Sequence record: DRR723986_3419
Strand: one strand, 5' to 3'
DNA length: 34,449 bases
The notes beneath the pieces are model-generated. The model did not search any database. It was not told the origin of the DNA and saw only the letters and a list, made by a program, of their open reading frames with translations. Both the position numbers and the translations under genes were made by a program. This document shows positions 4,276 to 21,472 of the stretch, one piece after another. Within the stretch, counting starts at the first letter, position 1, and each line of letters begins with the position of its first letter.

Positions 4276-6270
4276 TTAACGTGAGATGACGAAGCTCTCA
4301 GCAACGCTGGCACCATCGAGGGTTACCTGAACGAAGTATGTACCGCCAGTACGTTCGCCGGCTTCGAAGGAAAGTGAGTGCGGTCCTGCAGGCAGCATGC
4401 CATCTTGCAGAGTTGCAACTTTACGTCCGAAGAGGTCAAAAACGTTAACCTGAGCAACACCGTTATTCGGCAGAGTAAAGCTGATAGTAGCTTGAGCTGC
4501 AACCGGGTTAGGTGTGATTGCTACGTTTGTAGCTTTAGGCAGGGATTCACCTTCACCAACGCTTGAGCCGATCAGGACATCATAGAGATCCAGTTTGGCA
4601 TACATCACGTGCTGGTTGTCAAAGATTTGACGCTGTGCGATGTTAAGGTTAAGTGAGTCAGTTGGGTCTTCCTGTGAGTTTAACCATGCATTGGTAGCAA
4701 AGTTTGTACGGTTCGTGATGAACGGAACTTCTCTGAGACTTGGAAGCGTACGAGGCATCCAGGTTGTTTTCTCGTGGAAGATACTGTTCGTAACGTTAAC
4801 AACCGGACCCCATGAGTCAACACCAATTTCACGAGCTGTGAAGAAGATGTCATAGGCTGTGATTTCTGTTTCTTCGCCGTTAATTACAACGGTGTAAGGC
4901 ACCAGGTCAACCCATTTAGCGAGCATGAACTCAGGCGTGTCAGGATTGTTGTCTTCCGTGATTGAGATTTGGATGTCCGGCAGCGTTTGTGGCTGGTCAC
5001 CATCGTTGTTGTCGAAGTCAGCCTGTGAACCGAAGAAGGACTGGAAAGTACCGGTGTTGAGACCGATAGCACGAATTGTCCATTCGCCGGAGCGGTATTC
5101 GAGTTCGAGGATGCGGTCGAGTGTACCACCGTCAACGTTTTCAACGAGTGAGCAAACGAAGATAACGTGGTCTTCACCGATAACTTGCATGTCCTGACCG
5201 AGCAGGAAGTAGACGTCGTTAGTTGGGAAAACGGCACCGAGTCCTGTCAGGAAGTCGATGAATACCTGCTCAGGCATGTAGTCCCACTCAGTCCAGCTGT
5301 CGCCAAGGTCGGATGTTTTGATGACCATCGGTACGTCCCATGCAGCGTTGCCGTTTTCACGGTGTTCGCCGATGACACCAACATAGAGGTCGTTGTTGTG
5401 CCAGTCGATTTGAACCATGCGGTTTGTGCGCAGGTCTTCGGCAGCAGTTGTACCGATATCTTGTGGTTCGTCAAATACCGTTGTTTGGAACGGAGGAGGA
5501 ACCATTGCAACCGGCTCATCATCTTCGGCAAAGTTGTAGCGGATCATACCGATGTTGTTGTTCTGAACCGGAAGCGCAAATTCAGGAGCGTCCAGGTGAA
5601 CAAAAGCGATACCGGTTTGACCGTCGGGAGCGATTGTCAGGCATGTACCTGGCAGCCAGGAGTACTCTTCGCCTTCGATGACGAATGGAGGCACGGCGAT
5701 TTCAAATGGATCAGGAGCGTCACCGAAGGTGAAACCGATACCATAGTAACCCCAGCCACCGTTTACGAATGGGTTGGAGTGCACGAATGTCAGGTCTGCA
5801 ATGCTGGATGCGCCTTCAGGTGAGTGGATCGCAACGTTGGGGTAGCGCAGTGAATCCTGGACGTTTTCGCCTGGATCCTGCAATGGTCCGAGTGATTCTG
5901 ACCATGTGTCGCCAAGGTCGGTTGAGTAGCGCAGGAAGCCGCGGTTACGATTGAAGACTGGATCACCTTCGATACCACCGCGGAGGACGGTAACGAGGAT
6001 TCCGGTTTGCGGGTCGTATTCGAGTGGCGTTTGTGTGCCATTATAATACGAGAAGCCATTTTCCAGCGAATCGAGAATTTTGGGGTTGAGGGAGAGCAGG
6101 ATGTCTGCTTGTTTTTTGACACGCAATTGCTGAGCCCGGGCTCCTGGGTCATCAGATTTTTGCAGGCCCATTTTTGCACGCGCTTCGGCGGTAGTGTAGC
6201 GGGCTTCGCTCACTGCAGTCGAAACCACGAGGCCGGCCAAGGCCGTGCAAAGTAGTTTGCTAATTTTCAT
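4276..6270 (-). CDS. T9SS type A CTD-containing secreted protein with Asp-box (BNR) repeats, acidic
   Basis: Start reassigned to MKISKLL (GGAG RBS upstream, signal peptide ending VSEA). Asp boxes STDLGDTW and TSDLGDSW. CTD with PNP, VNVFDLFGRKV and GGTYFVQV. Confidence 0.85.
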   Translation of the reverse strand: MKISKLLCTALAGLVVSTAVSEARYTTAEARAKMGLQKSDDPGARAQQLRVKKQADILLSLNPKILDSLENGFSYYNGTQTPLEYDPQTGILVTVLRGGIEGDPVFNRNRGFLRYSTDLGDTWSESLGPLQDPGENVQDSLRYPNVAIHSPEGASSIADLTFVHSNPFVNGGWGYYGIGFTFGDAPDPFEIAVPPFVIEGEEYSWLPGTCLTIAPDGQTGIAFVHLDAPEFALPVQNNNIGMIRYNFAEDDEPVAMVPPPFQTTVFDEPQDIGTTAAEDLRTNRMVQIDWHNNDLYVGVIGEHRENGNAAWDVPMVIKTSDLGDSWTEWDYMPEQVFIDFLTGLGAVFPTNDVYFLLGQDMQVIGEDHVIFVCSLVENVDGGTLDRILELEYRSGEWTIRAIGLNTGTFQSFFGSQADFDNNDGDQPQTLPDIQISITEDNNPDTPEFMLAKWVDLVPYTVVINGEETEITAYDIFFTAREIGVDSWGPVVNVTNSIFHEKTTWMPRTLPSLREVPFITNRTNFATNAWLNSQEDPTDSLNLNIAQRQIFDNQHVMYAKLDLYDVLIGSSVGEGESLPKATNVAITPNPVAAQATISFTLPNNGVAQVNVFDLFGRKVATLQDGMLPAGPHSLSFEAGERTGGTYFVQVTLDGASVAESFVISR

Positions 6271-6464
6271 ATGATACACGCTCCAAAAAAAATTAGAATG
6301 ATGTTTATAAAAAACAATCAAAAGTAGTGTCGTAGTGTTATGGCGCCTGGAATACAAGAATACCGGGCAGTCGTAGAGAAGGTCACGCTGCGGCTGAAAC
6401 ATCCAGCGGCAGTATGAGCGTTAGTCACATAATAGCACGATCGTAAAAAATCGTTAACCTATAA

Positions 6465-6491
6465 ATTATACATATTTCACTTCTCCATCAA
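6465..6491 (-). promoter_or_regulatory. Possible sigma70-like promoter for the 4276-6270 gene
   Basis: Minus strand TTGATG-N15-TATAAT. The spacing is short. Confidence 0.3.
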
Positions 6492-6983
6492 ATACCATGT
6501 TGCAGCAAGGTATCCCGGGATAATAGATGTAGTGAGTGCGAAATTGGTTTCATCGGGAATCCAAAAATCGACTTGTGTTGGGTAGAATGCGGCCCTCCGC
6601 CGGGCGCATGTACTACTGATTTTTGGTTTTGACCACAGATTATACGGCATGCAGGCTGATGCCGTAATTTCTGGAGACAGGGCTCATCTATTATGCGCTG
6701 TTTTGCGCCCAACCACAAAGATTGCAACGAAGTTCCACAGCTGGTAAGTGTAAAACGCTTTTTTCTTCGGCGAAAATTTCAGATTTTGGCATGCTTGAGT
6801 GGAAACTCGAGACTTTGGCAAAGTGTGTCTGGCGCATATCAATTTGGCGCCAGGGCATGCACCACAAGGCCGCAAAAGAGTTGATTCCGCAGATAGGCCG
6901 GCAGCGCGAGAGCATTGCCGGAATCATTTGAGGAAAGAACGGTGTACTGGCAGTATGAATGACGGCATGGAGACAATAGTCGA

Positions 6984-8822
6984 ATGAGAAAATCTGGAAT
7001 GCGCCTGAAGTCCAATAGCAGGTCAATTTATGGACTGACAGCGCTGGTGGTACTGGGCCTGATATTAGGCAGTGGTGAGCCCACCGGTACCTTCGCAAAG
7101 AAGTCCAAAGATGAACTGCAAGCTGAGCGACGCACTGTAAACGCCGGCTACACATATTTCCACCGCCAAACACAAAACTCTCTATCTCAACGCCTGGATT
7201 ACCTGCCGGAGCAAAACCTGCTGCGACTGGTATGGATGGGTGCTGTAGATGAACAGGGGGCAGAGACACGCGGCAGCTACTACACACTTTACGACCTGCG
7301 CGATGATGATATGGCGCAGGTCAGCGACTGGAAGCGCGTGGAGTTTGCGAATGCCGGCTGGCCCGACATGAGCAGATATTCTGACGGTACGATTGGGATT
7401 GCCTCACACACGCCTGCTCAATTTTCAAAAAACAGTCGGCTGCGCGAAGAATCGTTCCAAACGATCAGCGCAGCCCCATTTTCGACGTTCTTTCCGCGTT
7501 CAGCAGTTGGTACTTCTGACCGCACACACATGGTATACACCTATGTGTCGGGTTCCAAAGCGCGCCACAGCTACTATGTGCAGTCCGACGACCTGGGCTC
7601 TACCTGGTCGAGCGAGCTGGCGATGACGAGCAGTGCTTCACCGGATGGTGCCGGTCCGCGGATGCTGGAGTTTGACGCGGTTGATCTGGATGCGCGTGGC
7701 GACGATGTTGTTTTTGTCTATCTGGACGGCAACCACACTTTGCACCAACGCCGTTCGAGCGACAATGGCGCCAGCTGGCAGAATCTGACGACGGTTATGC
7801 AGCCAGAATTTACACGCTTTAACGACCTCGGTACGGTCAGCGGTTCGGCGGTATTCGTCAGCGATACAGTTTTTGCACCTGGCTCTGATTTTGACGTTAG
7901 AATTGACGGTCTTGGCCGAGTGCATCTGGTCTTCTCACTTCTGCGCGTATATGTTTCCGGACTGGGAGCACGCCAGGGTGGGGAAATTGTACGTGACGGC
8001 CGTGATACGATCCATGTGGACACGACGGCCTTTGGTCGTTTCGGTTTGGCGTACAAGTTGGACAATCAGGCAGGATTTACGGAGATAGGCAGACCGGGTG
8101 GCGATACCTGGGATGGAGTCGGCACTTTTGTGGAACGCGGAACAGCCAGCAGCTACTCGCGTTACCCGCAACTGGCGCTGGACGCCGATAACCGGCCATA
8201 CTGTGTGTATACGTCCGTCAAAAACGGCGATATGACAGATCTGACGCGTGCGGGTGACCCCGTTACGATTAGGGATGCGCTCTATGGGCACATTTATGTG
8301 ACGCGTGAGCTAAGCCCAGGGAACTGGACGGTGGCGCAGGATCTGAGCCCGGAGGGCCGGGACTGCATGTATGGCGCGGTGGCTCCCTTCGTGGATGATC
8401 ACTTGTTCATAGCCTGGCAGCAGGGGGACCGGCCTGGTTTGCGCCTTGAAAATGAGAATCCCGAGCTTGACTCGGTTGTAATTCTACGTTTTCCTGTTGA
8501 GGACCTGACGGATGTGATTGCATCGGTGTCTGAATTGACGCAGGTGCCTGCGACCAGTCAATTTGAGCTGGAAGTTTTTCCGAATCCAGTAGGTACAGAA
8601 TTTACTTTGCGCGTGAATGCGCAGCAGACGGCGGATGTAGAGCTAAGGCTTTACGATGCGATCGGCAATCTGATTGGCAATTTATATCGCGGACGGGTCG
8701 CTACCGGCGTGACGGATTTGCCGATTTCGATTGAAAATTTTCAACTTCCTGATGGAGTATATTACTGCACGATTTCGGACGGTCGCTCGCAGGCGGGCAT
8801 CGGTCTAAGATTTTTTCAGTAG
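6984..8822 (+). CDS. T9SS type A CTD-containing secreted protein with Asp-box (BNR) repeats
   Basis: N-terminal hydrophobic segment. Asp boxes SDDLGSTW and SSDNGASW. CTD with VFPNPV, LYDAIGNLI and LPDGVYYCTI. Start could alternatively be 6999. Confidence 0.85.
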   Translation: MRKSGMRLKSNSRSIYGLTALVVLGLILGSGEPTGTFAKKSKDELQAERRTVNAGYTYFHRQTQNSLSQRLDYLPEQNLLRLVWMGAVDEQGAETRGSYYTLYDLRDDDMAQVSDWKRVEFANAGWPDMSRYSDGTIGIASHTPAQFSKNSRLREESFQTISAAPFSTFFPRSAVGTSDRTHMVYTYVSGSKARHSYYVQSDDLGSTWSSELAMTSSASPDGAGPRMLEFDAVDLDARGDDVVFVYLDGNHTLHQRRSSDNGASWQNLTTVMQPEFTRFNDLGTVSGSAVFVSDTVFAPGSDFDVRIDGLGRVHLVFSLLRVYVSGLGARQGGEIVRDGRDTIHVDTTAFGRFGLAYKLDNQAGFTEIGRPGGDTWDGVGTFVERGTASSYSRYPQLALDADNRPYCVYTSVKNGDMTDLTRAGDPVTIRDALYGHIYVTRELSPGNWTVAQDLSPEGRDCMYGAVAPFVDDHLFIAWQQGDRPGLRLENENPELDSVVILRFPVEDLTDVIASVSELTQVPATSQFELEVFPNPVGTEFTLRVNAQQTADVELRLYDAIGNLIGNLYRGRVATGVTDLPISIENFQLPDGVYYCTISDGRSQAGIGLRFFQ

Positions 8823-9072
8823 TGAAAAATGTCGTTTGACGGGAACCAGGGGCGGATTCACACCGTTTAACGGCGGGCTACAACTATTCCACTGCTTTTC
8901 AAGTCAAAAGAAAGTTCATTATTTGCGCTTTCTTATCTATCTTTCGACTTTTTTTGGCGCAAGCCGGGGAAAAAGCAAAGAGTTGTTGGCAAGAATACCG
9001 ATGCACATGGTGTTTGCCGAGGTAGGTGTGGACCATCCGCATTTTTACCTTGTGCTGTGAGGGTTACCAGGA

Positions 9073-9100
9073 TGTAACCTTTTTGCAAAGGGACTTGTCT
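9073..9100 (+). promoter_or_regulatory. ECF-sigma-type promoter upstream of the TBDR unit
   Basis: TGTAAC-N17-TGTCT, resembling the AAC-N16/17-CGT/GTC architecture of ECF promoters. Confidence 0.55.
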
Positions 9101-9360
9101 ACGCAGGAGTTTCGCGAGTACAAACCGGCGAATGTGATATCAAACGGCCATTCATGCGCCTTGCGCTTGGCGCGGCCTTAGGCTTTGATGACACATGGGT
9201 ACGGCGCGAGGCGGCATGCAGTTTCAAAAAAAACTGCAGAAAAATTACATCGAGCAAAAATTACAGACATATTTCAATGAACCATTGAACGTCAGCGCCG
9301 CAGCCTCGAGTGTTTCACCGAATCGGCCGCGTTCATCTATTAACTGAAGGAGTTGGACCT

Positions 9361-12300
9361 ATGCTGCAAAGGTTACTCATTCTTTTCGTTGCCGCCCTCT
9401 TCGTACCGGGACTGAGCTATGCCAGTATCTACGGTATTCTTGAAGGCACAGTAACGAACGAGGATGGCAAGCCGCTGGTCGGCGCGACAGTCAAGCTACG
9501 TGGAACGACAAAAGGTGCTTTTACAAACACCGAAGGCAAGTTTCGCATGGTGCAGGTTGAAGCTCGTCAATACACGATGGAGGTGACGTACGTTAGCTAC
9601 ACACCTTACGTGAAGACCGGAATTACGGTCAATCCAGACCAAACGACCAAAGTAAATGTCGAAATGTCGCCTGCAGGTGATGTTCGGACAGACGATGTTG
9701 TTGTCGTTGCTGATAGAAATGTTCTGGTCAAAAATGACCAGATCGGTACTTCACGTGCCATCAGCAGTGATCAGGCGACGTCAATTCCGCGGGACAACAT
9801 TGCCGGCGCCGTAACGCGTTCGGCTGGTGTTCAGGCTGGCGGAAGCGGCTTTAACATCCGTGGCCAACGTGCCGAGCACACGCAAGTGCGTATCAATGGT
9901 TTTAACGTCAATGACGAATTCAGTGGTGCAGGTGGTGGTCTAGGCCTTAACCTGCAGCCGACTATCAGCCCATTTGCTACAGAGCAGGTTGAAGTTGTGA
10001 CTGGTGGTCTTGGCGCTGAGTATGGTAACGCTATCGGTGGTATTGTTAATACCGTCGTAAAAGGTGGCCGTACTGACCGTTATGAAGGTTATGCCCGCTG
10101 GCGTACCAATGCCGAATTCCTTTATGGTGAGGCAGACAATGGCGCGCAAGCACAGGCAGGGAATGCTAACACCTACGAATTTGGTGTTGGTGGCCCAATC
10201 CCAGCAATTGACAATACGACATTCTTCCTCTCCGGTCGCTACGTTCACAATGAGTTTCGTGGTGCCGGTCTTGAAGTTTTTGACCCAATTGGAAACAACC
10301 TGGGCCAACGCCCGGACCAAGGTTCATGGGTACGCAACGTTACAGGTCGATTTGACATCGGCTTGACTAGCGACATTCGCCTGCAGGTTGGTGGTACGTA
10401 TGGTGCTACTTCCGCAGAAAACTCCGCATGGCAGTGGTTGTATGTTAATGATACATCCGTACTTCCGGACGGTACCACGAATGATGTACCAGAGCGCGTT
10501 GCCAAACAAGCTGTTACTAATCTGACGATCAACCAGCTGTATGCTCGTATGAGCCACACGGTTACGAATAGCAGTTTCTATGAGATGTCATTCTCATGGA
10601 GCTCCCGCCGTCAGGAAACAAACAAACGTAAAAGCTTTGACGATCCAACGATTCTGGGCAACATCGAACTGTGGGAACCACTTGATGAAGTCACAATCTT
10701 CACAGGTGCCAACGATGATGTTGTTGTAGAGAATCAGCCTGACCGTATTCTGGATTACTATGCTGAGACAGAAGCACAAACACTGACAGAAGATGGTCTG
10801 CTTCCTGGTATTCGTCCAGTTCGCAATCCAATCACTGGATACATCGAAGGTGGTGAGAACAACACTGGTACTGCCAATCCTTATGGATTGCAGCAGCTGA
10901 CGACGGGTGGTAACAACTACTTCGTCACCCATGGTAACCAGCGTGCTCTTGACTTCCGTACATCAACCTTCTTCCAGGTTGACGGTAACTACACTTCGAT
11001 CTTTGACATGAACGGTTTTAACCACACCCTGAAAGCTGGTTTTGAGCTGCGTCTCTTCTCACTTGAGCGTCACTCAAACTCGCTGCCATGGAATGACCAA
11101 CCGTTTTATGACATCTATACTTCAGAGTGGGGTGGAAACTTCTACGCTGAAGATCCAGAAGTTCGTGACCTGACGTCACAGCCATACGAACCACTTGACG
11201 CTGCATTCTACATCCAGGATCAGATCAAGTACAAAGGCATTATCTTCTCGCCTGGCGTTCGTCTTGACTTTATGACACCAAACGCTGAATTCCGTGCTCG
11301 CGCCGACTCATTTGTTTCGATCGTGGACAAAGTCCGCGCACCGGAATTCTTTGAAGATTCGCCGACGCAGGTTCGCGTAAGCCCTCGTTTGAGCGTTGCT
11401 TACCCAGTAACGGACCGTTCAAACTTGAGCTTGAGCTACACTGTTCAGTACCAGCGTCCAACGTTTAACCGCTTCTACGATGCGTTTAACACAGACCTGC
11501 TTCGCGGTAACCAGATCATCGGTACACCGAACCTGGAACCACAAACAGTAAAAGCATACCAGATGGCCTACAACGGTCAGTTTACGGATGACATGGCCTT
11601 TGACGTTACAGCGTACTATCGCGACATGTTTAACATGACCGGTATCACCTACGTCCCGGCTACTCCAGTTCCTTACTCGGTGTACTCAGTTGCTGAATAC
11701 GGCAACTCCCGCGGGGTTGAGCTGACGTTCCGTAAACTTCCTGTAAACGATAACATTGGCTTCTCAGCCAACTATACACTGGCGCAGGCTCGTGGTACTT
11801 CATCCGCTACCGGAACCAACTACTCCCTGATTGTTACAGGTGGTACTGACGGTTTCACGGATAGTATCCGCACCTTCCCACTGTCCGAATATTACCTGAG
11901 CTTTGACATTCGCCATCGCATCAACTCTTCACTGGATATCATTTTCCGTGATGGAGAAGGTCCAACGATTGGTGGTCTTAAAGTTCTTGAGCACACTCGT
12001 ATGACATTTACTGCTGACTACTCCAGCGGTACGCCGTATACGAAACTCAATCGTGCCGGTGAGCAGATTGGTGAATTCAACGGCGAACGTCAGCCAGACT
12101 TCTGGCGCATTGACACCCGTATTCAGCGTGACATTCCGCTCAAGGACCTCTTTGGCGAATCATTGGGCAACACTCGCCTGACGCTGTTCATGGATATCTT
12201 TAATATCACTAACCGTACGCAGGCGACTGGGTTCTTTGCCCGGACTGGTAATCCCGACAACGACGGCAACGTTTTGGACCGTCAAGTTGGTGATTTTTCG

Positions 12301-12534
12301 TCGGTGGAGTTTTACCGCGATGCTGATTCGGATCCACGTGCTTCACGTGCCGATCAGTACGACTCATTCGGAAACCGTTTGTACAACGTGAATTCCGATA
12401 CGAACCTTGATGGTGTTATCACTCAGCAAGAGAAGTTCGAGTCGTACCAGCAATTTGTGTCTGACTTCCAGTCACGTCGGCCGAACTACCAATACCCACG
12501 CACTGTCAGCTTCGGCTTGATTTTGCAGTTCTGA
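9361..12534 (+). CDS. TonB-dependent receptor-like outer-membrane barrel with N-terminal carboxypeptidase-regulatory-like domain
   Basis: ATG 9361 with GAAGGAG RBS and a signal peptide. G.VT..DGKPLVGATV domain, TonB-box-like DDVVVVA, plug motifs NIRG..ING and VEVVTGGLGAEYGNAIGGIVN, NLEPQ, C-terminal Phe. Confidence 0.92.
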   Translation: MLQRLLILFVAALFVPGLSYASIYGILEGTVTNEDGKPLVGATVKLRGTTKGAFTNTEGKFRMVQVEARQYTMEVTYVSYTPYVKTGITVNPDQTTKVNVEMSPAGDVRTDDVVVVADRNVLVKNDQIGTSRAISSDQATSIPRDNIAGAVTRSAGVQAGGSGFNIRGQRAEHTQVRINGFNVNDEFSGAGGGLGLNLQPTISPFATEQVEVVTGGLGAEYGNAIGGIVNTVVKGGRTDRYEGYARWRTNAEFLYGEADNGAQAQAGNANTYEFGVGGPIPAIDNTTFFLSGRYVHNEFRGAGLEVFDPIGNNLGQRPDQGSWVRNVTGRFDIGLTSDIRLQVGGTYGATSAENSAWQWLYVNDTSVLPDGTTNDVPERVAKQAVTNLTINQLYARMSHTVTNSSFYEMSFSWSSRRQETNKRKSFDDPTILGNIELWEPLDEVTIFTGANDDVVVENQPDRILDYYAETEAQTLTEDGLLPGIRPVRNPITGYIEGGENNTGTANPYGLQQLTTGGNNYFVTHGNQRALDFRTSTFFQVDGNYTSIFDMNGFNHTLKAGFELRLFSLERHSNSLPWNDQPFYDIYTSEWGGNFYAEDPEVRDLTSQPYEPLDAAFYIQDQIKYKGIIFSPGVRLDFMTPNAEFRARADSFVSIVDKVRAPEFFEDSPTQVRVSPRLSVAYPVTDRSNLSLSYTVQYQRPTFNRFYDAFNTDLLRGNQIIGTPNLEPQTVKAYQMAYNGQFTDDMAFDVTAYYRDMFNMTGITYVPATPVPYSVYSVAEYGNSRGVELTFRKLPVNDNIGFSANYTLAQARGTSSATGTNYSLIVTGGTDGFTDSIRTFPLSEYYLSFDIRHRINSSLDIIFRDGEGPTIGGLKVLEHTRMTFTADYSSGTPYTKLNRAGEQIGEFNGERQPDFWRIDTRIQRDIPLKDLFGESLGNTRLTLFMDIFNITNRTQATGFFARTGNPDNDGNVLDRQVGDFSSVEFYRDADSDPRASRADQYDSFGNRLYNVNSDTNLDGVITQQEKFESYQQFVSDFQSRRPNYQYPRTVSFGLILQF

Positions 12535-12550
12535 TCTTACGCTTGATTGC

Positions 12551-12574
12551 CGGCCGGGCTGAGAGGCTCGGCCG
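12551..12574 (+). other. Intercistronic GC-rich hairpin with GAGA tetraloop, no U-tract
   Basis: CGGCCGGGCT-GAGA-GGCTCGGCCG. Confidence 0.7.
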
Positions 12575-12636
12575 CTCTCACGTTTTATCTGGATGGATGG
12601 ATAATCATCAACTTTAACCATAGAGTAAGTCAACGC

Positions 12637-15600
12637 ATGAAAACTTTCAAACTTCTGGTGACAGGTCTGGCCCTGCTCCTTATCGGTTTTATGACCGATA
12701 CGGCGCTGGCTGCGACTGCAGCAAGCGCGAAGAAGGGAACCGGCGATCAGATTCAGCGACGTGGTTCGCTCTTCGATTTGCAAGAGAACACAATCAGTAA
12801 TATCCAGTTCTTCTCAACGAACTATGGGATCTTCGGTCTGAACGTTGCCGGTAACTCCGGTGGTGGTTTCTGGCCGCGCAACTCAAACAACGCTTACATC
12901 TTTGGTGGCGGTATCTGGTTTGGTGCTCTTAAGCGCCTCGAAGGTGCTACAAACCCAAGTAAGCTTGTTGTGATCTCATACAATCCTAACTCCGGTCTCT
13001 CCTGGATGTCTCCAGGTAAGATTCAGGATGGTGATGGAATCATTAACGAACAGGATGCCATCGAAAAATACCGCGCGTATTTTTCAACCGACTTTGACAA
13101 AACAGGTGAGCCACTTGATGCCGGCGACGGTCCAAACTGGCCAATCTGGGATACACAAAACGAGGAAACACTGAAGCGCGACCGCTATCTTGGCGATTTC
13201 GTTTTTGATGTAGATCAGCGCAATAGCGACTCCTATCCAAAAGGCCCGGCCTTCATTTCACAGGAAGACATTGTTAGTGTATTTAAAGACACTGACCTGA
13301 CTCTGTATGAAGGTGGTCGTGAGTCACGCCGCCGTCGTGGATATCCAATGCGCCTCGACTTCGAACAAACGATCTACTCATGGGGCTTTGGTGATTACAA
13401 GGACTTTATGTTCTTGTCATACAGAATCATCAACCAGTCGCCTGACACGTTGTTCGAATGTTTCATGGCTCCTGCCATGGACATGGATATCGCACCACGC
13501 TCCAACCAGCGTAATGGTGCTGACAATGACCGTACGCGTTTCTACGAAGAAGAAGACACTCTGAACCTTGCCGTCCAATGGTCGGAAGGTAACCGCGGTG
13601 AAAACGAACAAGGTTTTGGTTATATCGGTTTTGACTTCCTTGAAAGTCCTGCCGTAGACGAAGACGGTTTCCTGCGTACAGACAAGAAATTCTACGATAA
13701 CGACGAGCAACTTGGTCTCGCTACGTTTAGAAACTGGGTTATCCAGAATGACCCGACTGGTGATGAAGAACGTTATGACTTTATGTCGGCTCAGATTCGC
13801 GATGGTGACTCTGATGCTGGTGACAAACGTTTCTTGATGGCCACCGGCCCATTTAACCTCCGTCCTGGTGACACAGCCAACGTCGTTGTTGGTCTGATCA
13901 TCGGTTCCGCCGCCACGTCCGTTGGTCGTGCCACGGTTCCAGACGGTTCGGAAGAGGATCTCCAAGAGCTGATCCGCAAGGACAAATTTGCTCAAACTGT
14001 TTATGATGACAACTTCCGTGCTCCAGTCCCACCAGATGCTAGTCGCATGCAGTGGCGTCCACTGGACAACGGTATGATTGTAACCTGGGATAGCCTGGCA
14101 GAAGTTTCCGTTGACTCTCTGGAAGACGGTCTTGACTTCATGGGTTATCGCATCTTCCGTGCGCGCCGACTTGACCTTGATACTTTCAACACGAATACTG
14201 AGGGTCCTTCACTGGAATACTCACGTGGCCGTGGACCTTTGGGCTGGAAACAAATTGCAGAATTTGTTGTGCCTGCTCCATTCACGAAAGTACCAATCGA
14301 CGGCGTACTTGAGTTCAATCCTCGCGGTGAAGTTGCTCCGCAGATTGACTCCATGGTTGCATTTGGCCTTGATGTCGCCTCACGTACATATCGTGTAGCG
14401 CGTTATGGTAACGGTATGATACCTGCAGTTGCTGTGCCTCAGGGTGGAACAGTGCCGGTTTACAATCCGGACTTTGACGACCCGCGTTTGGAATCAAACG
14501 GTCTTTTCCCACTGCCAAACGGCGATTGGTTTGACTTCTTTAACGCGCTTGACAAACAGCCAGGCGGTGGCGATCAGCTGCGTGCGATGTTCATTGGTAC
14601 CATCGTCGTTTCGCCTGCCATTACAGACCTTCCACCGCTGAACGATGAGTTCCTGATGGATACGCTTTACGCGTACATCCAGCGTGGACAGGCCGTTGCT
14701 GAATTCGCCGACATTGGTGACCGTCTTGACGCCAAAAACTACGTTGTTGGTTTGATGGATGAACTCACGACTGGATTTCAGTTCGTAGATGTTGGTGATG
14801 ACAACAATGATGGTATCGTAACTGAGACCACAAGCCTTGCAACAACTGAGAAACTGATCAACAACGTTGACTATTTCTACAGTATGCTGGCATTTGACGA
14901 AGGTGACTTTAACCAGGGTACACCTGGTAAATTCAACTCGCGTATTCGCGGTCGTAACCAAATTGCCTCGATTCCTTTGGCACCACGTGCACGCAAGGAA
15001 GCTGACATCCAGTTTAACATCGCTCCCGAAGATTCAGCCCGCCTTGGCGGTTTGTACAACTTCCGTGTTGATGTACTTGACTATGAGCGCCTTGCACAAC
15101 TGTACTCCGGTCACACATTCGAAGTAAGCTTTGAGCCGGTATGGCTCGGTGTAAGCCTCGTATTCCGTGACGCTGACGGTACCAATGAGCGCCGCTATGA
15201 TAACACCGGTTTGTATGCTCGTGACGTTGTAATTCGCGACGTAACAGAGGATCGTGAGATCAGCCGTTACCCAGCTTACAACTTCAACGGCCGTAACAGC
15301 TTTGTTATCGGTTCCTATGCTGAAAACGGTGCCGGATATATCGGTACTGATACGCTCAGTATTGGTGAGCAGGATGCTACAAATGCAACGATTCTTTCAC
15401 GTGGTGGTGCATTTAACTCCCGTGACGTTCGCTGGCGTCCAAACCAGTTCATCGGCGGAACATTTGCGATTGCATTTGACCACTACATGCAGCAGTACGG
15501 CGGTACGTATCGTGCGTTTGACGCAACGATCACGAACGGCGATGCTAACACTCACGTGACATTTAGTGATCAGGTTGCTCTGATGCAAGTTGGTGAAGGT

Positions 15601-16674
15601 GGACGTTTTGAGAGCTTTAACAACGGTCCTGGTGTATATGAAGTTGAGTTCTTGCCTGGTGGTTCAGGTGAGCGTGTTGACGTGACTGTTAATCAGTCCG
15701 GTGGCCAATCAGCTACATATACATATGAATTGTCGTGGTTGAACATCCGTGTTCGCAACGTCATTTCCTATGATCGTCCAGTTTCACAAACTGAAAACGT
15801 TGCTGTTACCTACCCAGGTGAGCTGACGGAACAAACGATTCCGCTGCCATCCGAGTACGAAACAATTGGTGCGAACGGACCAGAGACTGTGACTCTCGAA
15901 TTCCCTGACCCACGTAATGTAGAAGTTGGAAGTTTCAACCTCTCAGCCTACGGCTGGGTTGATGGACGTGAGTCCGACCGCCTTATCGACCGCCGGAATC
16001 AGGCTGCCTGCCAGAATGAAGGTTGCCCGGTTGGTACACAAGGCCGTTACTATCTTTCCGCTACGTCGCTTGACGGCCAGCACACGATTGACTTCACACA
16101 CTTCCTGGTTGTAGGTGGTGTTGAGTTCGGTCTTGACTTTGCCAACAAGCGTGGCCGCCGCTCCAGCGATAGCTGGGATGGTGCCGAAGAAACTCCTACA
16201 ATTGACTTTGAAGCCGGTGACGTCGTACGTTTCTCGACGTTTGGTGGTGGCCTTGGTTTACCACTGCCGGATGCCAAAGTTCAATTTACAATCAATGAAC
16301 TGTTGCCAGAGTTGGATGAGTACACTGACGAGCTGCTGAAGCAAGTCAAAGTAGTTCCCAACCCGTATATCGTGTCGCACATCGGTCAGCCAACAACTGA
16401 CCAAGGTAAGATCTACTTCACACACCTGCCTCAGCAGTGTACGATCAAGATCTATACCATTAATGGAGACCTGATTCGCGAAATCAATCACACTGATGGA
16501 GCGAGCGGTGAAGAGAGCGGAACCCGCGCCTTCGCCGTTTGGGACCTTCTCAGTGACGGTCGCCAGCGCGTCGGTTCTCAAACCCTCGTTGCGCATGTGG
16601 AAACGCCAAATGGAGCCTCCCACATCGTGAAGTTCTCGGTTATTACCGGTGGCTTCCGGAACGTGGCACGCTAA
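12637..16674 (+). CDS. Large secreted protein (~1345 aa) with FN3-like region and T9SS-like C-terminal sorting domain; function unknown
   Basis: Start reassigned to MKTFKLL (signal peptide ending ALA). Motifs WP....YIFGGGIWFG, GFDFLESP, GDKRFLMATGPF, IVTWD..GYRIFR..YFYSMLAFD. C-terminus VKVVPNPY..IYFTHLP..CTIKIYT.NG.LIR..WDL..KFSVI. Confidence 0.85.
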   Translation: MKTFKLLVTGLALLLIGFMTDTALAATAASAKKGTGDQIQRRGSLFDLQENTISNIQFFSTNYGIFGLNVAGNSGGGFWPRNSNNAYIFGGGIWFGALKRLEGATNPSKLVVISYNPNSGLSWMSPGKIQDGDGIINEQDAIEKYRAYFSTDFDKTGEPLDAGDGPNWPIWDTQNEETLKRDRYLGDFVFDVDQRNSDSYPKGPAFISQEDIVSVFKDTDLTLYEGGRESRRRRGYPMRLDFEQTIYSWGFGDYKDFMFLSYRIINQSPDTLFECFMAPAMDMDIAPRSNQRNGADNDRTRFYEEEDTLNLAVQWSEGNRGENEQGFGYIGFDFLESPAVDEDGFLRTDKKFYDNDEQLGLATFRNWVIQNDPTGDEERYDFMSAQIRDGDSDAGDKRFLMATGPFNLRPGDTANVVVGLIIGSAATSVGRATVPDGSEEDLQELIRKDKFAQTVYDDNFRAPVPPDASRMQWRPLDNGMIVTWDSLAEVSVDSLEDGLDFMGYRIFRARRLDLDTFNTNTEGPSLEYSRGRGPLGWKQIAEFVVPAPFTKVPIDGVLEFNPRGEVAPQIDSMVAFGLDVASRTYRVARYGNGMIPAVAVPQGGTVPVYNPDFDDPRLESNGLFPLPNGDWFDFFNALDKQPGGGDQLRAMFIGTIVVSPAITDLPPLNDEFLMDTLYAYIQRGQAVAEFADIGDRLDAKNYVVGLMDELTTGFQFVDVGDDNNDGIVTETTSLATTEKLINNVDYFYSMLAFDEGDFNQGTPGKFNSRIRGRNQIASIPLAPRARKEADIQFNIAPEDSARLGGLYNFRVDVLDYERLAQLYSGHTFEVSFEPVWLGVSLVFRDADGTNERRYDNTGLYARDVVIRDVTEDREISRYPAYNFNGRNSFVIGSYAENGAGYIGTDTLSIGEQDATNATILSRGGAFNSRDVRWRPNQFIGGTFAIAFDHYMQQYGGTYRAFDATITNGDANTHVTFSDQVALMQVGEGGRFESFNNGPGVYEVEFLPGGSGERVDVTVNQSGGQSATYTYELSWLNIRVRNVISYDRPVSQTENVAVTYPGELTEQTIPLPSEYETIGANGPETVTLEFPDPRNVEVGSFNLSAYGWVDGRESDRLIDRRNQAACQNEGCPVGTQGRYYLSATSLDGQHTIDFTHFLVVGGVEFGLDFANKRGRRSSDSWDGAEETPTIDFEAGDVVRFSTFGGGLGLPLPDAKVQFTINELLPELDEYTDELLKQVKVVPNPYIVSHIGQPTTDQGKIYFTHLPQQCTIKIYTINGDLIREINHTDGASGEESGTRAFAVWDLLSDGRQRVGSQTLVAHVETPNGASHIVKFSVITGGFRNVAR

Positions 16675-16691
16675 ACGATAATCCGCTAGGA

Positions 16692-16720
16692 CGCCTCCGC
16701 GGCAGCACGCCGCGGAGGTG
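16692..16720 (+). other. Intercistronic GC-rich hairpin, no U-tract
   Basis: CGCCTCCGCGGC-AGCAC-GCCGCGGAGGTG. Confidence 0.75.
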
Positions 16721-16770
16721 ACTAACGCAGAACCAAAGCAAAACAATTGATAAGGTGGGAGCTAATCTCC

Positions 16771-17841
16771 ATGAAACGACTTTTTCTATGTATCGCGTGC
16801 GCAGCAATTATTGGCGCTGGAGCCGATGAAGCCTTTGCTCAGGCAGCACCTGCAGCTTCATCCGGTACCGACTTTAAAAAAGTTGGTGCAGCCGGTGGTC
16901 AATTCCTGAAAATGGAAGTGGGCGCACGTGCAGTTGGTATGGGCGGTGCATATACCGGCGTCGCCAATGATCTGACTGCTCTCTTCTGGAATCCAGCTGG
17001 AATTGCCGACCTTGAAGGTGTCTCGGCCAGCTTTTCCTACACAAACTGGTTTGCCGGGTTTGGCCACAACTTTGTTGCAGCTTCGCTGCCGGTTGGTGAT
17101 CAATTCCGTGCTGCACTGAGTGTAACTACATTCAGTAGCGGTGAAATTGAAGTAACGACTCTGCTTAATCCCGATGGCACAGGCTCGTTCTACTCGCGTG
17201 ATGATATTGCCGTGGGCGCGTCCTTCGGTGGTTATCTTACTGAGCAGTTCTCCTTTGCTGTGACGGCTAAATACGTCGAAGAAGGTTTCTCTTCGGTTTC
17301 AAGTAGCGGCATGGTTTTTGACATCGGTACCATGTACGATACCGGTATCAACGGCGTGCGCCTTGGTTTCTCGATCAGTAACCTCGGTTCCGACTTTAAC
17401 TACTCAGGTCAGGATCTCATCTTCCAGGCCGATCAGGAACCAGTTCTTGATCGTCGTGAAAGCGATGCTACTCTGCTGTCCAACCCTTACTCTCTGCCAC
17501 TGTCCTTCCGCGCCGGCCTTGCCGCCGACGTTCTGGAAAACTTCTTCGACATGAAAACCGAAGAAGGTGAAGTTCGCGAACACGCACTGCTTGTAGCTGC
17601 TGACTTCGTGACACTTTCGGACACGCCAGAGCAGTTTAACGTTGGTGCAGAGTACATGTGGAATGAGCTCCTCGCTCTGCGTGGTGGCTACAAAATCAAC
17701 CATGATGAACTCGGCCTCTCCGGCGGCCTTGGAATCAACTATGTCGGTGGCGGTTTCAGCGGCCAGCTCGACTATGCGATTTCAACGATGTCTAATTTTG
17801 ATGTTGTTCATCGCGTGACGATCGGTGTGGATCTCAACTAA
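16771..17841 (+). CDS. PorV/PorQ (UPF0164, FadL-like) family outer-membrane beta-barrel
   Basis: ATG 16771 with GGGAG RBS and a signal peptide. FLKMEVGARAVGMGGA, ALFWNPAG, FDIG, LPLSFRAG, GAEY, LRGGY, DYA, HRV. Confidence 0.9.
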   Translation: MKRLFLCIACAAIIGAGADEAFAQAAPAASSGTDFKKVGAAGGQFLKMEVGARAVGMGGAYTGVANDLTALFWNPAGIADLEGVSASFSYTNWFAGFGHNFVAASLPVGDQFRAALSVTTFSSGEIEVTTLLNPDGTGSFYSRDDIAVGASFGGYLTEQFSFAVTAKYVEEGFSSVSSSGMVFDIGTMYDTGINGVRLGFSISNLGSDFNYSGQDLIFQADQEPVLDRRESDATLLSNPYSLPLSFRAGLAADVLENFFDMKTEEGEVREHALLVAADFVTLSDTPEQFNVGAEYMWNELLALRGGYKINHDELGLSGGLGINYVGGGFSGQLDYAISTMSNFDVVHRVTIGVDLN

Positions 17842-17872
17842 GATTCCACCGTCTTCATTTCAGGGATGTATG

Positions 17873-17911
17873 AAAATTGCCGCTGTCTACAAGGTCAGCG
17901 GCAATTTTTTT
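17873..17911 (+). terminator. Rho-independent (possibly bidirectional) terminator closing the three-gene unit
   Basis: AAAATTGCCGCTG-N10-CAGCGGCAATTTTTTT. Confidence 0.85.
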
Positions 17912-17925
17912 AAAAAGGTGTTTCG

Positions 17926-19404
17926 ATGACTATTACTGCAACAAACAGCCATAAACCAGCCACGCGCTTCCTACAGACTGTCGCTCTGCTGCTCTGCGGA
18001 TTGGCCCTGGCATCCTCATATTCCTTTGCCAAGAGTGTTCCCGTCGTAAGTATCGATGCGGCGTTCTTCCGCTATGATGAATCGAAGAATTACTGCGAAG
18101 TATTTTATTCGATTCCCGATTCCTCACTGACGTACCGCCCCGATCCAAACGGAGAGTATATCGGTGAAGTCTACATGCGTGTAGAAGTCGGTACCAAAGT
18201 CAAACAGGAACTGGCCTTCCACTGGATTGTTGAGCATAAATCCGACGTCGAAAAACCTTCATACGATATGGACCTGAATGGCCTCAAGTCTTTCTTGCTT
18301 CCGCCGGGAAACTACGATGCCACCATCGTGATTAAAGATCTGGCCTTCCCGAATGACTCGACGCTGGTCACCGTGCCCATGCAGGTGCCCAAATTTGGCA
18401 ATGATCGCGTACAGCTCAGCTCGCCAATTCTGGCAAGTACTATCGAACCAGTCGATAAAAGCGACAAGGAACGCTACGAGTCCGTGTATCGCCATTCTTC
18501 CATGTACGTCGTGCCGAATGCATCACAAATACTATCCGGAACTACACCGGTGCTGCAAACCTACCTGGAAGTCTACAACACTCAACGTTTTCTTGGAGAA
18601 GGATTTACGGCCCGCTACCGCGTCCTGAGTTCGGACGGCAAGGAAAGAGCGCGCCAGGAAAGTCAACATAAGGCCACCAGCAACGCGCAGGTACTGGCAC
18701 AGTCCATGCCTGTTGATACGCTGCCCAGCGGAATGTATTACGTCAATATTGGAATTGTAGATGCGGAAGGGCAGCTGCAAACCGAAACCGCTAAACGCTT
18801 CTATCTGGTGAATCCCGACCGTCCTCCGGTCCAGGAGCGCCTCTTCTCCGTTGATGAGCGCTTTGAGACCAGTGAATTTGCAACACTCAACGGCCGCGAA
18901 ATCAAAAAAGCCTGGGAGCAGTTCCGCGTTCTGGCGGCACCCTCCGAAGTCGCCGTTTGGGAAGACCTGACGGACGATAAGGCCCGCGCCCGTTTCCTGT
19001 TTCAGCAGTGGGACCTGCGTGATCCGGACCGCCAAACCAAAATCAATGAGTCCCTGGAAGAATTTAAAGCGCGCATCGAACATGCCAACACCTTCTTCCA
19101 GAGCCTGCGCCACAAAGAAGGCTGGCGCTCCAGCCGCGGACGTGTGCTCCTGCAATACGGCCAGCCCGATGACGTCCGCCGTCACTACAGTGAGCCGGAA
19201 ACGCGCCCTTATGAAATCTGGACATTTACGCAGATTCAGGGTGGTGTGACCTTCGTATTCGTAGATATGAGTGGTGCCGGTGCCTTTTCACTTGTGCATT
19301 CAACCGCACTCGAAGAGCATCTTGATGAAGACTGGTTTAACCGCTTTGCGCGCGTAGTGCCGGGTGGCAATGTCAATCAGGATGATCCGCTCATGGGCCG
19401 GTGA
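17926..19404 (+). CDS. GWxTD domain-containing protein
   Basis: Signal peptide and Ig-like N-terminal region. W..RDPD..T..NE, RIEHAN..F, GWRSSRGRV...YGQPD, PYEIW, FVFVD..G.G.F.LVHST. Confidence 0.88.
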   Translation: MTITATNSHKPATRFLQTVALLLCGLALASSYSFAKSVPVVSIDAAFFRYDESKNYCEVFYSIPDSSLTYRPDPNGEYIGEVYMRVEVGTKVKQELAFHWIVEHKSDVEKPSYDMDLNGLKSFLLPPGNYDATIVIKDLAFPNDSTLVTVPMQVPKFGNDRVQLSSPILASTIEPVDKSDKERYESVYRHSSMYVVPNASQILSGTTPVLQTYLEVYNTQRFLGEGFTARYRVLSSDGKERARQESQHKATSNAQVLAQSMPVDTLPSGMYYVNIGIVDAEGQLQTETAKRFYLVNPDRPPVQERLFSVDERFETSEFATLNGREIKKAWEQFRVLAAPSEVAVWEDLTDDKARARFLFQQWDLRDPDRQTKINESLEEFKARIEHANTFFQSLRHKEGWRSSRGRVLLQYGQPDDVRRHYSEPETRPYEIWTFTQIQGGVTFVFVDMSGAGAFSLVHSTALEEHLDEDWFNRFARVVPGGNVNQDDPLMGR

Positions 19405-19446: not shown

Positions 19447-20364
19447 GTGGCGCAATGGTTATTGACGCAATTTCTGGCGTTTCTCGGCGTAATCAGCCGC
19501 GTCTTGCCCTGGGGCATGCGCCAGTTTATGGGCCGGCGTGTCGGTGACGTCCTGCGCCTGCTGAGCCGTAAACGACGTGAAATCACCGAGTCGAACCTGC
19601 AGCACTCCTTCCCCGAAACCACAAGTGCGCAGCGCGAACAGATAGCGCGTGAGTCCTATCACAACCTCGGCATCACACTTCTTGAACTCCTGGCATTTCC
19701 GGCGCTCAGCGACGCAGAAATTGAGCGCGTTATCCGCTTCGAAAATATTGAACTGATTCAGTCGGCCTGTGCTTCCGGTGGCGGCGTGATTCTGCTTTCC
19801 GCCCACTTTGGCAACTGGGAGCTTTCCGCCTTTGCCGTTGCCCATCACCTGGGCCTGCCGCTAAATGTCATCGTAAAACATCAACGCAATCAATATGCTG
19901 ACCGCATGCTCAACCGCATTCGTGCGGCACGTGGTAATAATCTGGTTTCAATGGACCGCGCCGCGCGCGAAGCCGTGCGCGTCTTCCGTTCCGGTGGAAT
20001 TTTAGCCTTGCTTGCCGACCAAAGTGCCCGGCCCGGCTCCGATCCATTTCTGAACGTTTTTGGCCGTCCGGCGCCCGTCTACCGCGCCCCGGCAGCTCTT
20101 GCCCTGCGCTTTGGTGTGCCGATTGTGATGGGCCTGTGCACGCGCCAGGCCGACGGTACCTATGTTGTACGCCTGCATGCCGTGGATATGGAGGGTCTGC
20201 CACCCGATGAGGAGGGCATCATGGAGTTAACGCGCCGCCACCTGGCGATGATGGAAAATCATATACGCGAATTCCCGGGCCAATGGGTTTGGCAGCACCG
20301 CCGCTGGAAACACAAGGCCCCACCCGAATTTACAAGTGGCGCAACAGCTGAGAAGCCGCAATGA
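19447..20364 (+). CDS. Lipid A biosynthesis late acyltransferase (LpxL/HtrB family)
   Basis: NL..SFPE, HFGNWE, LADQ, FGRPA, PGQWVWQHRRWK. Confidence 0.92.
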   Translation: MAQWLLTQFLAFLGVISRVLPWGMRQFMGRRVGDVLRLLSRKRREITESNLQHSFPETTSAQREQIARESYHNLGITLLELLAFPALSDAEIERVIRFENIELIQSACASGGGVILLSAHFGNWELSAFAVAHHLGLPLNVIVKHQRNQYADRMLNRIRAARGNNLVSMDRAAREAVRVFRSGGILALLADQSARPGSDPFLNVFGRPAPVYRAPAALALRFGVPIVMGLCTRQADGTYVVRLHAVDMEGLPPDEEGIMELTRRHLAMMENHIREFPGQWVWQHRRWKHKAPPEFTSGATAEKPQ

Positions 20365-21467
20365 GCATTGCCAAGGAAGACCTGCACACTGCCCGGCGCC
20401 TCGCAATTTTGCACACAGCCTTCATTGGGGATGTGGCGCTCGCTGCCGTCCTGGCGCAAAAAATCAAAGACCTGGCGCCGCAAGCCGAGCTGCATTTTAT
20501 CACAACTCCGCAGGCGGCGCCACTGGCTGAGTGTTTTGCGGCCGTTGATCAGGTGCATGTTTTTGACAAGCGCGGCAGTGCGCGCGGAATCGCCGGAATG
20601 CGCAAATTTGCCGCGCAGCTGGCCGAACTCAGCTTTGATGGAATGATTGTGCCGCATCGCTCGCTGCGAAGTACCTTGCTGGCGCGCTGGTGCCGCCCCG
20701 GGTGGTCGCTCGGTTTTAACTCAGCCGGACTGGCGAAGCTGCATACATTCACTGAACACTATCAGCAGCATCTGCACGAAGTCGATCGCAATTTGGCGCT
20801 TCTGCGCAGATTTTTACCTGGTGGCACAAGTGATTATGCCGACCTGCGGCCGCGCAGCGTGGCTGTCGACCTTGCACCTGACGTGTCCGGCGCAGTTGAT
20901 CAATTGCTGCAGGACTGTGGGCTAGATTATGGAAAGGGTGGCTCAACTGAGATCCTGGCGATAGCTCCGGGCTCGGTTTGGCCAACTAAACGCTGGCCCA
21001 CCTCAAAATTCCGCGAGCTGATTACGATGCTCAAATCCCAGCCGGGAAGTACCGCACTCACGCCCCTGCTTGTTGGTGGACCGGCGGATCGCGAAATCTG
21101 TGACTCCCTGGCGCAGGACCTCAATATTGCCAACCTTGCCGGCCGCACGAGTCTGCCCGAACTGCTCGAAATTCTGCGCCGCTCAGCGCTCCTGTTGAGT
21201 AACGACAGTGCGCCGACGCATCTGGCCAACCTGATAAACTGTCCCGTTGCAGTTCTGTTTGGTCCCACAATTCCCGAATTTGGCTTTGCGCCACGCAAGG
21301 CACATGACCGTGTAATTCAGATGCAAAATATGCCATGCCGCCCCTGTTCCATCCACGGCCCCCGCCGCTGCCCACTTGGAACTCACGCCTGCATGCACGA
21401 AATTCCCGTCGAATCCGTACTCGATACGCTCAAGGACATGCACGCAATCGCATCCAAAAATTCCTGA
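20361..21467 (+). CDS. waaF: GT9 glycosyltransferase (LPS heptosyltransferase II-like)
   Basis: TAFIGDV, PHRSLRS, HEVDRNL, APGSVWPTKRWP, NDSAPTHLA, FGPT, CRPCSIHG..CPLG.H.CM. ATGA overlap with the lpxL-like gene. Confidence 0.88.
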   Translation: MSIAKEDLHTARRLAILHTAFIGDVALAAVLAQKIKDLAPQAELHFITTPQAAPLAECFAAVDQVHVFDKRGSARGIAGMRKFAAQLAELSFDGMIVPHRSLRSTLLARWCRPGWSLGFNSAGLAKLHTFTEHYQQHLHEVDRNLALLRRFLPGGTSDYADLRPRSVAVDLAPDVSGAVDQLLQDCGLDYGKGGSTEILAIAPGSVWPTKRWPTSKFRELITMLKSQPGSTALTPLLVGGPADREICDSLAQDLNIANLAGRTSLPELLEILRRSALLLSNDSAPTHLANLINCPVAVLFGPTIPEFGFAPRKAHDRVIQMQNMPCRPCSIHGPRRCPLGTHACMHEIPVESVLDTLKDMHAIASKNS

Positions 21468-21472
21468 CTCGT

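Follow-up and report, generated by a model that had tools for sequence, protein, structure and literature searches.

In Porphyromonas gingivalis, two type IX secretion system (T9SS) substrates, PorU and PorZ, keep their C-terminal domains (CTDs) uncleaved and are anchored on the outer-membrane barrels PorV and PorQ, respectively; for PorQ, pickup of its own substrate at the translocon has, in addition, been proposed (as described in PMC10947112 and PMC12365241). Here, we examine a locus (positions 9361 to 17841, plus strand) within a 34,449-nt stretch of DNA from sequence record DRR723986_3419, referred to below as the window, in which three genes encode a TonB-dependent receptor (TBDR)-like outer-membrane protein, a giant secreted protein of no known family, and a barrel of the PorV/PorQ family. 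The initial annotation had singled out these genes as co-oriented, and all three are indeed present on the plus strand (Table 1). Each of the encoded proteins opens with a hydrophobic, signal-peptide-like stretch, as judged by eye.

The anchoring principle itself is already known from PorQ-PorZ and PorV-PorU; what is new here is the passenger with the domain family to which it belongs, the constant tie to a TonB-dependent barrel, and a GWxTD-domain protein encoded alongside. As in the described pairs of the attachment complex, where a T9SS-exported surface protein keeps its CTD and sits on a barrel of the PorV/PorQ family (PMC12365241, PMC10947112), the tail and the barrel of our locus match by sequence. 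The passenger, however, carries neither the propellers of PorZ nor the C25 peptidase of PorU, the two genes are adjacent to each other and joined to a transporter gene, and the barrel passes no equivalog cutoff; retention of the tail, moreover, is something that we infer for this locus.

The pairing of type B CTD cargo with a PorP/SprF-type carrier, as in sprB-sprF, offers a second parallel. Such cargo is anchored by binding to its carrier and not by lipopolysaccharide (LPS), according to PMC12365241. In our locus, too, the barrel gene comes right after the cargo gene, but the barrel belongs to the PorV/PorQ and not the PorP/SprF family, and a type B CTD was rejected for the tail, as no model of this type matched at E <= 0.1 or at E <= 1.

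A third parallel concerns the transporter. PorF (PG0534; Fjoh_0118) belongs to the T9SS and carries the annotation of a TBDR, and import of glycans for anionic lipopolysaccharide (A-LPS) has been proposed for it; its mutant resembles porQ and porZ mutants, and its partners are given as unknown in the sources at hand (PMC12704123, PMC5445135). In C. hutchinsonii, PorV is reported to have copurified with SprA and with a TBDR 32.8% identical to PorF (PMC8564354). Our locus likewise places a TBDR-type outer-membrane protein, a possible counterpart of PorF, beside T9SS-type parts; no NCBIfam match of that name appeared at E <= 0.1. PorF is, furthermore, listed as a 92-kDa protein (PMC5445135), whereas the transporter here comprises 1057 amino acids and has an N-terminal extension.

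Finally, the locus resembles the SusC/SusD glycan-uptake systems of Bacteroidota in that surface proteins are encoded next to a TonB-dependent transporter bearing a carboxypeptidase-regulatory-like extension. It differs in that SusD is missing among the 20 open reading frames (ORFs) scanned in the window; identity as SusC/RagA (TIGR04056) was likewise rejected, with a score of 58.1 bits against a cutoff of 368 that is confined to the N-terminal 130 residues. The partner proteins here would be delivered by the T9SS instead of being lipoproteins, and the cluster is single copy per locus and clade-wide, unlike a variable utilization locus. The initial annotation had described the cluster as free of SusD, recognizable carbohydrate-active enzymes, and regulators, and none of these appeared when the 20 ORFs were scanned with Pfam.

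A conserved outer-membrane module in Kapabacteria-type Bacteroidota

A pattern scan of the GTDB species genomes returned 288 candidate stretches, 255 of which encode a relative of the giant protein. The best 80 of these 255 were kept with their flanks (up to 24 kb of each genome), and the counts given here therefore describe the closer relatives; neighbors were counted by rule, with the loci that have room for the gene in question as the denominator. All 80 loci come from metagenome-assembled genome (MAG) records, titled mostly Kapabacteria, Kapaibacterium, Ignavibacteria, Bacteroidota, or Chlorobi. The GTDB titles of L001, L012, L024, L037, and others (e.g., “uncultured Hyphomicrobiales,” “Chloroflexota,” and “Chitinophagaceae”) look mislabeled, their gene content being that of the same Kapabacteria-type cluster.

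The TBDR-like gene lies directly upstream of the giant gene, on the same strand, in 66 of 67 loci, and the barrel gene lies directly downstream in 65 of 66. The sole misses, L012 for the transporter and L021 for the barrel, are counting artifacts, since the locus table has the gene in place in both. The order of transporter, giant protein, and barrel on one strand, with short gaps, holds in all informative loci among the 80, a recurrence that exceeds chance, and the conserved synteny on which the initial annotation had staked its proposal is thereby borne out. Its triad holds as to gene order, but the true unit is wider. Upstream, a gene on the same strand encoding a homolog (610 to 700 amino acids) of one of the window's two Asp-box proteins, at 6984 to 8822 and 4276 to 6402, directly precedes the transporter gene in 52 of 57 loci, often by less than 30 nt (605 nt in L003). 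Downstream, 41 of 58 loci have a gene for a GWxTD-domain protein no more than 500 nt 3' of the barrel gene, a number that rises to 43 when the limit is set at 1 kb. We therefore regard the locus as a conserved outer-membrane module of Kapabacteria-type Bacteroidota that comprises four genes or more, in most cases five, and of which one full-length copy is seen per locus.

Beyond the module, all 40 loci with sufficient room have an LpxL-like gene after the GWxTD gene, and in 29 of these 40, LpxL is in turn followed by a GT9 gene. Compared across the same 29 genomes, mean pairwise identity is 0.62 for the N-terminal domain of the giant protein (N-domain), 0.56 for its tail, 0.53 for the barrel, and 0.49 for the transporter, as opposed to 0.44 for LpxL and 0.41 for GT9, so that each of the four module parts compared exceeds these LPS enzymes in conservation.

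With regard to taxonomic range, the recurrence in Calditrichota and Rhodothermota that had been supposed was not confirmed: the 80 loci and all named relatives are MAGs of the Kapabacteria, Ignavibacteria, or Bacteroidota type. The sole hint of a wider range comes from feature-based look-alike clusters in the Protein Atlas, which are unnamed and carry sparse labels of WOR-3, Calditrichota, and Fidelibacterota. A search started from a more distant long relative (P0245) reached no other phylum and instead returned a second, paralogous long family (P0245 and P0308 to P0391; 1240 to 1430 amino acids) that has the N-domain in common with the giant protein and likewise comes from Kapabacteria-named MAGs. 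The cluster is described nowhere in the literature searched, and searches combining Kapabacteria with type IX secretion, or Ignavibacteria with PorV, yielded no title on such a cluster.

The giant protein, its tail, and the neighboring barrels

The last ~110 residues of the giant protein start with a PNPY-type motif and are modeled as a six-strand sandwich. They also hold the only near-invariant cysteine of the family. The initial annotation had called the giant protein a CTD protein, which is apt in that the tail is CTD-like, but the tail is not a standard type A domain: TIGR04183 scores 12.5 bits against a cutoff of 23, and Pfam Por_Secre_tail (PF18962) gives no match. In an NCBIfam scan of 56 tails from the family (E <= 1), the C-terminal part of PorZ was matched by 51 tails (best E value, 3.8e-8), that of PorU by 32 (6.4e-4), and the generic type A model by 10 (8.3e-5). 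Judged by these matches, the tail resembles those of PorZ and PorU more than it does type A. Since it is not type A, the type A CTDs that had been proposed as controls offer a contrast and not a like-for-like comparison.

PorZ itself (NF052228; two beta-propellers plus CTD; cutoff, 260) was rejected as an identity, because only the last 70 to 90 model positions match, at 13 to 19 bits, and the strand pattern of the model contains no propeller. The PorU sortase (NF033707; peptidase C25 with a catalytic Cys-His pair), considered in view of the adjacent porU and porV genes of other Bacteroidota, was rejected as well: the match is limited to model positions 1004 to 1076, that is, the tail, and there is no gingipain- or caspase-like fold match.

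The adjacent barrel belongs to the PorV/PorQ family as defined by NF033709, with 190 bits against a cutoff of 90 and alignment over positions 4 to 326 of 326, and 56 of 56 relatives match this model. It falls below the equivalog cutoffs of PorQ (NF033711; 75.3 versus 220 bits), PorV (NF033710; 69.7 versus 250), and PorV2 (NF052325; 57.6 versus 325). We observe the same sub-cutoff pattern in all 56 of 56 relatives, with best E values of 2.6e-24 for PorV, 6.3e-29 for PorQ, and 7.1e-23 for PorV2; these cutoffs were presumably set on other classes, and the barrel may be a distant ortholog. Compared with solved structures, it matches PorV (6h3i_F) at 1.8e-9 over the N-terminal half only. A hidden Markov model of the barrel family, run on all ORFs of the window and of the 80 loci (each covering at most 24 kb of its genome), found no second member except one weak ORF in L072.

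Across the loci, mean pairwise identity reaches 0.58 in the tail and 0.51 in the barrel, whereas the type A CTD of the upstream family averages 0.29 in these loci. The earlier suggestion that the barrel is a private shuttle or anchor fits both this difference between the tails and the PorZ/PorU-like character of the tail. By analogy with PorQ and PorZ, the giant protein is probably a T9SS substrate that is held at the cell surface by an uncleaved tail of the PorZ/PorU type on the adjacent barrel, which is the part of our reading with the best support.

The body of the giant protein belongs to no known family. Its gene, counted from the ATG at 12637, sits within a longer ORF that begins with TTG (12547 to 16674), and searches with sequence and profile gave no Pfam, NCBIfam, or PDB match for the body. 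That such proteins are annotated as hypothetical, as had been stated, is true of every source name listed among 346 relatives. We built two AlphaFold models from 53-sequence alignments, covering residues 1 to 660 (pLDDT [predicted local distance difference test], 80.2) and 641 to 1345 (pLDDT, 75.6), and searched them for folds with Foldseek. The N-terminal ~430 amino acids form a large beta structure in the model, the top matches of which are enzyme chains of the GH116, GH94, and GH15 types and the periplasmic domain of YidC (E value, ~1e-7; query-normalized template modeling [TM] score, 0.2 to 0.3; identity, 8 to 12%). In our reading, the part matched in these enzymes would be their N-terminal beta-sandwich domains. 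The remainder is modeled as a string of beta-sandwiches, for which the only informative fold match is PorZ (5m11; E value, 1.3e-4; query-normalized TM score, 0.13).

The N-domain reaches far beyond this cluster. Its profile retrieves 2761 representative proteins at E <= 1e-3, of which 336 remain at E <= 1e-30. Many of these relatives are short (513 to 584 amino acids, ~540 being typical) and consist of the N-domain plus a type A CTD: at E <= 0.01, Por_Secre_tail matches 15 of 15 short proteins and 19 of 26 of all those scanned, and the long forms scanned are without an ordinary type A CTD. The special tail thus goes with the long form beside the barrel. Where source names are available, which is the case for few, the proteins are called “T9SS type A sorting domain-containing protein” and come from MAGs of Ignavibacteriae and Bacteroidota. 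Taken together, the reach of the profile and the type A CTDs of the relatives indicate that the N-domain is a common, unannotated domain of T9SS cargo for which Pfam has no model. A search of the Protein Atlas with the N-domain alone gave no usable named match.

Several further observations concern N-domain relatives. Two pairs of proteins, each apparently sharing a source, suggest that several short paralogs may occur per genome. In L012, a short paralog of 594 amino acids (4956 to 6737) stands directly upstream of the transporter gene and replaces the usual Asp-box protein. In addition, P0158 contains an inserted Ycf48-like Asp-box propeller (residues ~540 to 663), and P0120 carries a precomputed PF07494 match; propeller and supersandwich thus occur both fused, in some long relatives, and as neighboring genes.

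Turning to the transporter, its gene starts with an ATG 6 nt 3' of a GGAG, and Pfam recognizes CarboxypepD_reg at residues 27 to 102 and Plug at residues 126 to 228, the latter with 42.4 bits against a cutoff of 23.9, which places the protein among the TBDRs. The extension and plug domains were found in 45 of 45 relatives scanned, and TonB_dep_Rec_b-barrel in 9 of 45. Against solved structures, the family profile matches PhuR (1e-17), the TonB-linked receptor 9gbc (1e-15), and the SusC homolog 8aa4 (1e-10). At the expected location of a TonB box, the family has a conserved (D/E)-x-V-V-V-x-A stretch; across 70 family members, valine or isoleucine occupies positions 113 and 115 in 67 to 68, and alanine occupies position 117 in 42. 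This stretch may resemble the TonB box of SusC-type proteins.

Flanking genes and transcript signals

The features of the locus and its surroundings are collected in Table 1.

Table 1. Features of the module and its flanks; positions refer to the window
Feature	Position	Strand	Basis
Secreted protein, 612 aa, with Asp-box (SxDxGxTW-like) repeats and canonical type A CTD; propeller-like	6984..8822	+	TIGR04183, Pfam
TBDR-like outer-membrane protein, 1057 aa: signal-peptide-like start, N-terminal extension of carboxypeptidase-regulatory-like type, TonB-box-like stretch, plug, large barrel	9361..12534	+	Pfam, family profile
TonB-box-like segment, residues 111-117 (DDVVVVA), between N-terminal extension and plug	9691..9711	+	column counts
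Secreted protein, 1345 aa, no known family: signal-peptide-like start, conserved beta-supersandwich at the N terminus, variable linker, beta-sandwich modules, C-terminal domain of PorZ/PorU-like type (domains as modeled)	12637..16674	+	ORF, models
N-terminal domain, residues ~45-470, most conserved part of the cluster, modeled as beta-supersandwich	12769..14046	+	model; mean pairwise identity 0.62
C-terminal domain, residues ~1238-1345, CTD-like beta-sandwich of PorZ/PorU type with conserved GGFR tail	16348..16671	+	NCBIfam scan, model
G+C-rich hairpin between giant and barrel genes, no T run	16692..16720	+	12-bp stem; -29.9 kcal/mol; z = -4.9; 0/200 shuffles as good
Outer-membrane barrel of the PorV/PorQ family, 356 aa; proposed as private shuttle and anchor	16771..17841	+	NF033709
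Intrinsic-terminator-like hairpin with T run	17872..17912	+	folding energy, shuffles
GWxTD-domain protein, 492 aa, signal peptide; frequent fifth member	17926..19404	+	TIGR04514, PF20094
Lipid A acyltransferase	19447-20364	+	Pfam
GT9 heptosyltransferase-type gene	20361-21467	+	Pfam
SIS+CBS KpsF-like gene	21335-22477	+	Pfam

The Asp-box protein encoded directly upstream of the transporter belongs to a family that is divergent in sequence. Its TIGR04183 score is 26.1 bits against the cutoff of 23, Por_Secre_tail covers residues 531 to 602, and a BNR_2 match is weak. A second Asp-box-like protein with a type A CTD (708 amino acids; TIGR04183, 27.9 bits) is encoded on the minus strand at 4276 to 6402, in divergent orientation to the first, with significant BLASTP similarity between the two limited to the tail; minus-strand counterparts of this gene were seen only in the three closest loci, L001 to L003.

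Downstream, the GWxTD protein scores 80.2 bits with TIGR04514 (cutoff, 28) and 35.6 bits with PF20094 (cutoff, 26.9), and we found no paper on this domain under its name or either accession. Among the LPS-type genes that follow, the GT9 and KpsF-like ORFs overlap by 133 nt, and the KpsF-like start probably lies further downstream. Further along, the ORFs at 24130 to 25404 and 25606 to 26484 show weak matches of a flagellar type (Flg_hook, 24.1 bits and below cutoff; FlgD_ig, 28.2 bits over 25 residues). These need not be flagellar genes, since the Ig-like fold of FlgD also occurs in T9SS-type tails.

As to transcription, the closing terminator predicted initially was recovered: the hairpin at 17872 to 17909 with its T run was missed by a consensus scan but found by folding (-22.4 kcal/mol; z = -4.6; none of 200 shuffles as good). 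The candidate promoter that the cluster had been credited with was not, as positions 8823 to 9360 contain no sigma-70-like site on the plus strand and no TAnnTTTG promoter consensus. The G+C-rich hairpin between the giant and barrel genes may serve in the processing or stabilization of the transcript. Rfam returned neither a riboswitch nor any other RNA family for the whole window, nor for positions 6350 to 9450 in a permissive scan.

Proposed mechanism and competing readings

As our first choice, we propose that the giant protein, anchored by its tail, captures a ligand for the adjacent TonB-dependent transporter, a chain of events to which we assign, as a whole, a probability of roughly 40%. 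The C-terminal domain, being of the PorZ/PorU kind, would not be cut off and would stay docked on the barrel encoded alongside, which would act as the private shuttle and anchor of the giant protein, in the manner of PorQ and PorZ. From its position at the surface, the highly conserved N-terminal beta-supersandwich would bind or process a glycan-like ligand, probably with the assistance of the Asp-box protein from the upstream gene, and the adjoining TonB-energized transporter would import it. Predicted in this scheme are the retained tail and its docking on the barrel, the contact made with the transporter, what kind of ligand is bound, and in which direction it is carried. The giant protein could, as initially put forward, serve as a lid of the transporter barrel and as an alternative to SusCD.

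Several points weigh against this scheme. The modeled fold would point to a glycan as the ligand, but the fold matches of the N-domain are weak and concern noncatalytic domains, and “glycan” is therefore a guess. Neither Rfam nor Pfam revealed a riboswitch or regulator in the window that would hint at a substrate. Conservation above that of the LPS enzymes, together with the LPS neighbors, agrees with a housekeeping role in the envelope no less than it does with nutrient capture. The genome could have this barrel as its general PorV, and our locus counts describe the closer relatives. In addition, we compared distance matrices of the module parts across 40 nonredundant genomes, with partial correlations obtained by regressing out the transporter distances. 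The distances of all parts correlate (r = 0.49 to 0.82), as expected from shared descent, and tail and barrel show no specific covariation (partial r, 0.27, versus 0.35 for N-domain and barrel and 0.38 for the middle region and barrel), the test being nondiscriminating.

There is a rival that we rate as rather doubtful but serious, given the precedent of PorF and the adjoining conserved LPS genes, both overlooked in the initial annotation. According to this rival, the cluster would be T9SS machinery itself, a Kapabacterial counterpart of the PorF, PorQ/PorV, and PorZ/PorU group with a function at a late stage of secretion. Seated on its barrel, the giant protein would deal with a glycan of the LPS type and assist in attaching ordinary type A cargo to the surface, with the TBDR-like protein in the role of PorF. 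The operon would then genetically link a TonB-dependent barrel of the PorF type, a barrel of the PorQ/PorV type, and a protein with a retained CTD of the PorZ/PorU type, forming, with the GWxTD protein and the LPS genes, one outer-membrane machine for the handling of an LPS-linked glycan and the surface attachment of secreted proteins, with the giant protein as a new working subunit that has neither propeller nor C25 peptidase. The PorZ/PorU-like tail, the PorQ/PorV-like barrel, and the single full-length copy per locus agree with such a role, as do PorF itself (PMC12704123, PMC5445135) and the PorF-like TBDR that copurified with PorV in C. hutchinsonii (PMC8564354). The LPS genes downstream, and a module that is more conserved than they are, point the same way, although in a single class such adjacency may reflect an inherited gene order that has no bearing on function. 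Whole-protein models and fold searches, moreover, show no PorZ propellers or PorU C25 peptidase in the body of the giant protein, and its N-domain occurs in many ordinary cargo proteins, which suits an extracellular function better than a part of the machinery. Ligand capture and a T9SS/LPS role would converge if the transporter barrel imports glycans for LPS-linked attachment, as suggested for PorF.

It is unlikely that the barrel is, instead, the general PorV for all type A cargo, with the transporter and the giant protein having no physical tie to it and with its position echoing the porU-porV pair. The window and its relatives do encode type A cargo in need of a PorV, and the weak ORF in L072 is the only second PorV-family candidate in the window or the 80 loci, but loci of this length say little about the absence of such a gene. 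The barrel aligns with the N-terminal half of the PorV model only, at about 70 bits, as opposed to the full length of the PorV/PorQ family model and the greater part of that for PorQ, and the giant protein is not PorU.

Very unlikely, finally, is an outward-working transporter, that is, a TonB-dependent exporter of the giant or the upstream protein with the barrel as receiver: a CarboxypepD_reg-like domain, a plug, and a large barrel in ~1050 amino acids do recall Oar of Myxococcus, which is reportedly needed for protease secretion, and 1 of 45 relatives matches Pfam OMP_b-brl_4, but it is just that one, and the T9SS-type C-terminal domains of both candidate passengers already explain their export.

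The module is among the most constrained envelope gene sets in these loci, yet its central protein goes by the name “hypothetical” in every source name listed. Anchoring of the giant protein would extend the PorQ-PorZ principle of a private barrel and an uncleaved tail to a new passenger that is genetically tied to a TonB-dependent barrel. This tie bears on a question of the T9SS that is raised in PMC12704123, namely, the role and partners of PorF. The N-domain, furthermore, defines a large, unannotated family of T9SS cargo domains. If the nutrient-capture reading is true, the module would represent a SusD-free way to give a TonB-dependent transporter its surface partners.

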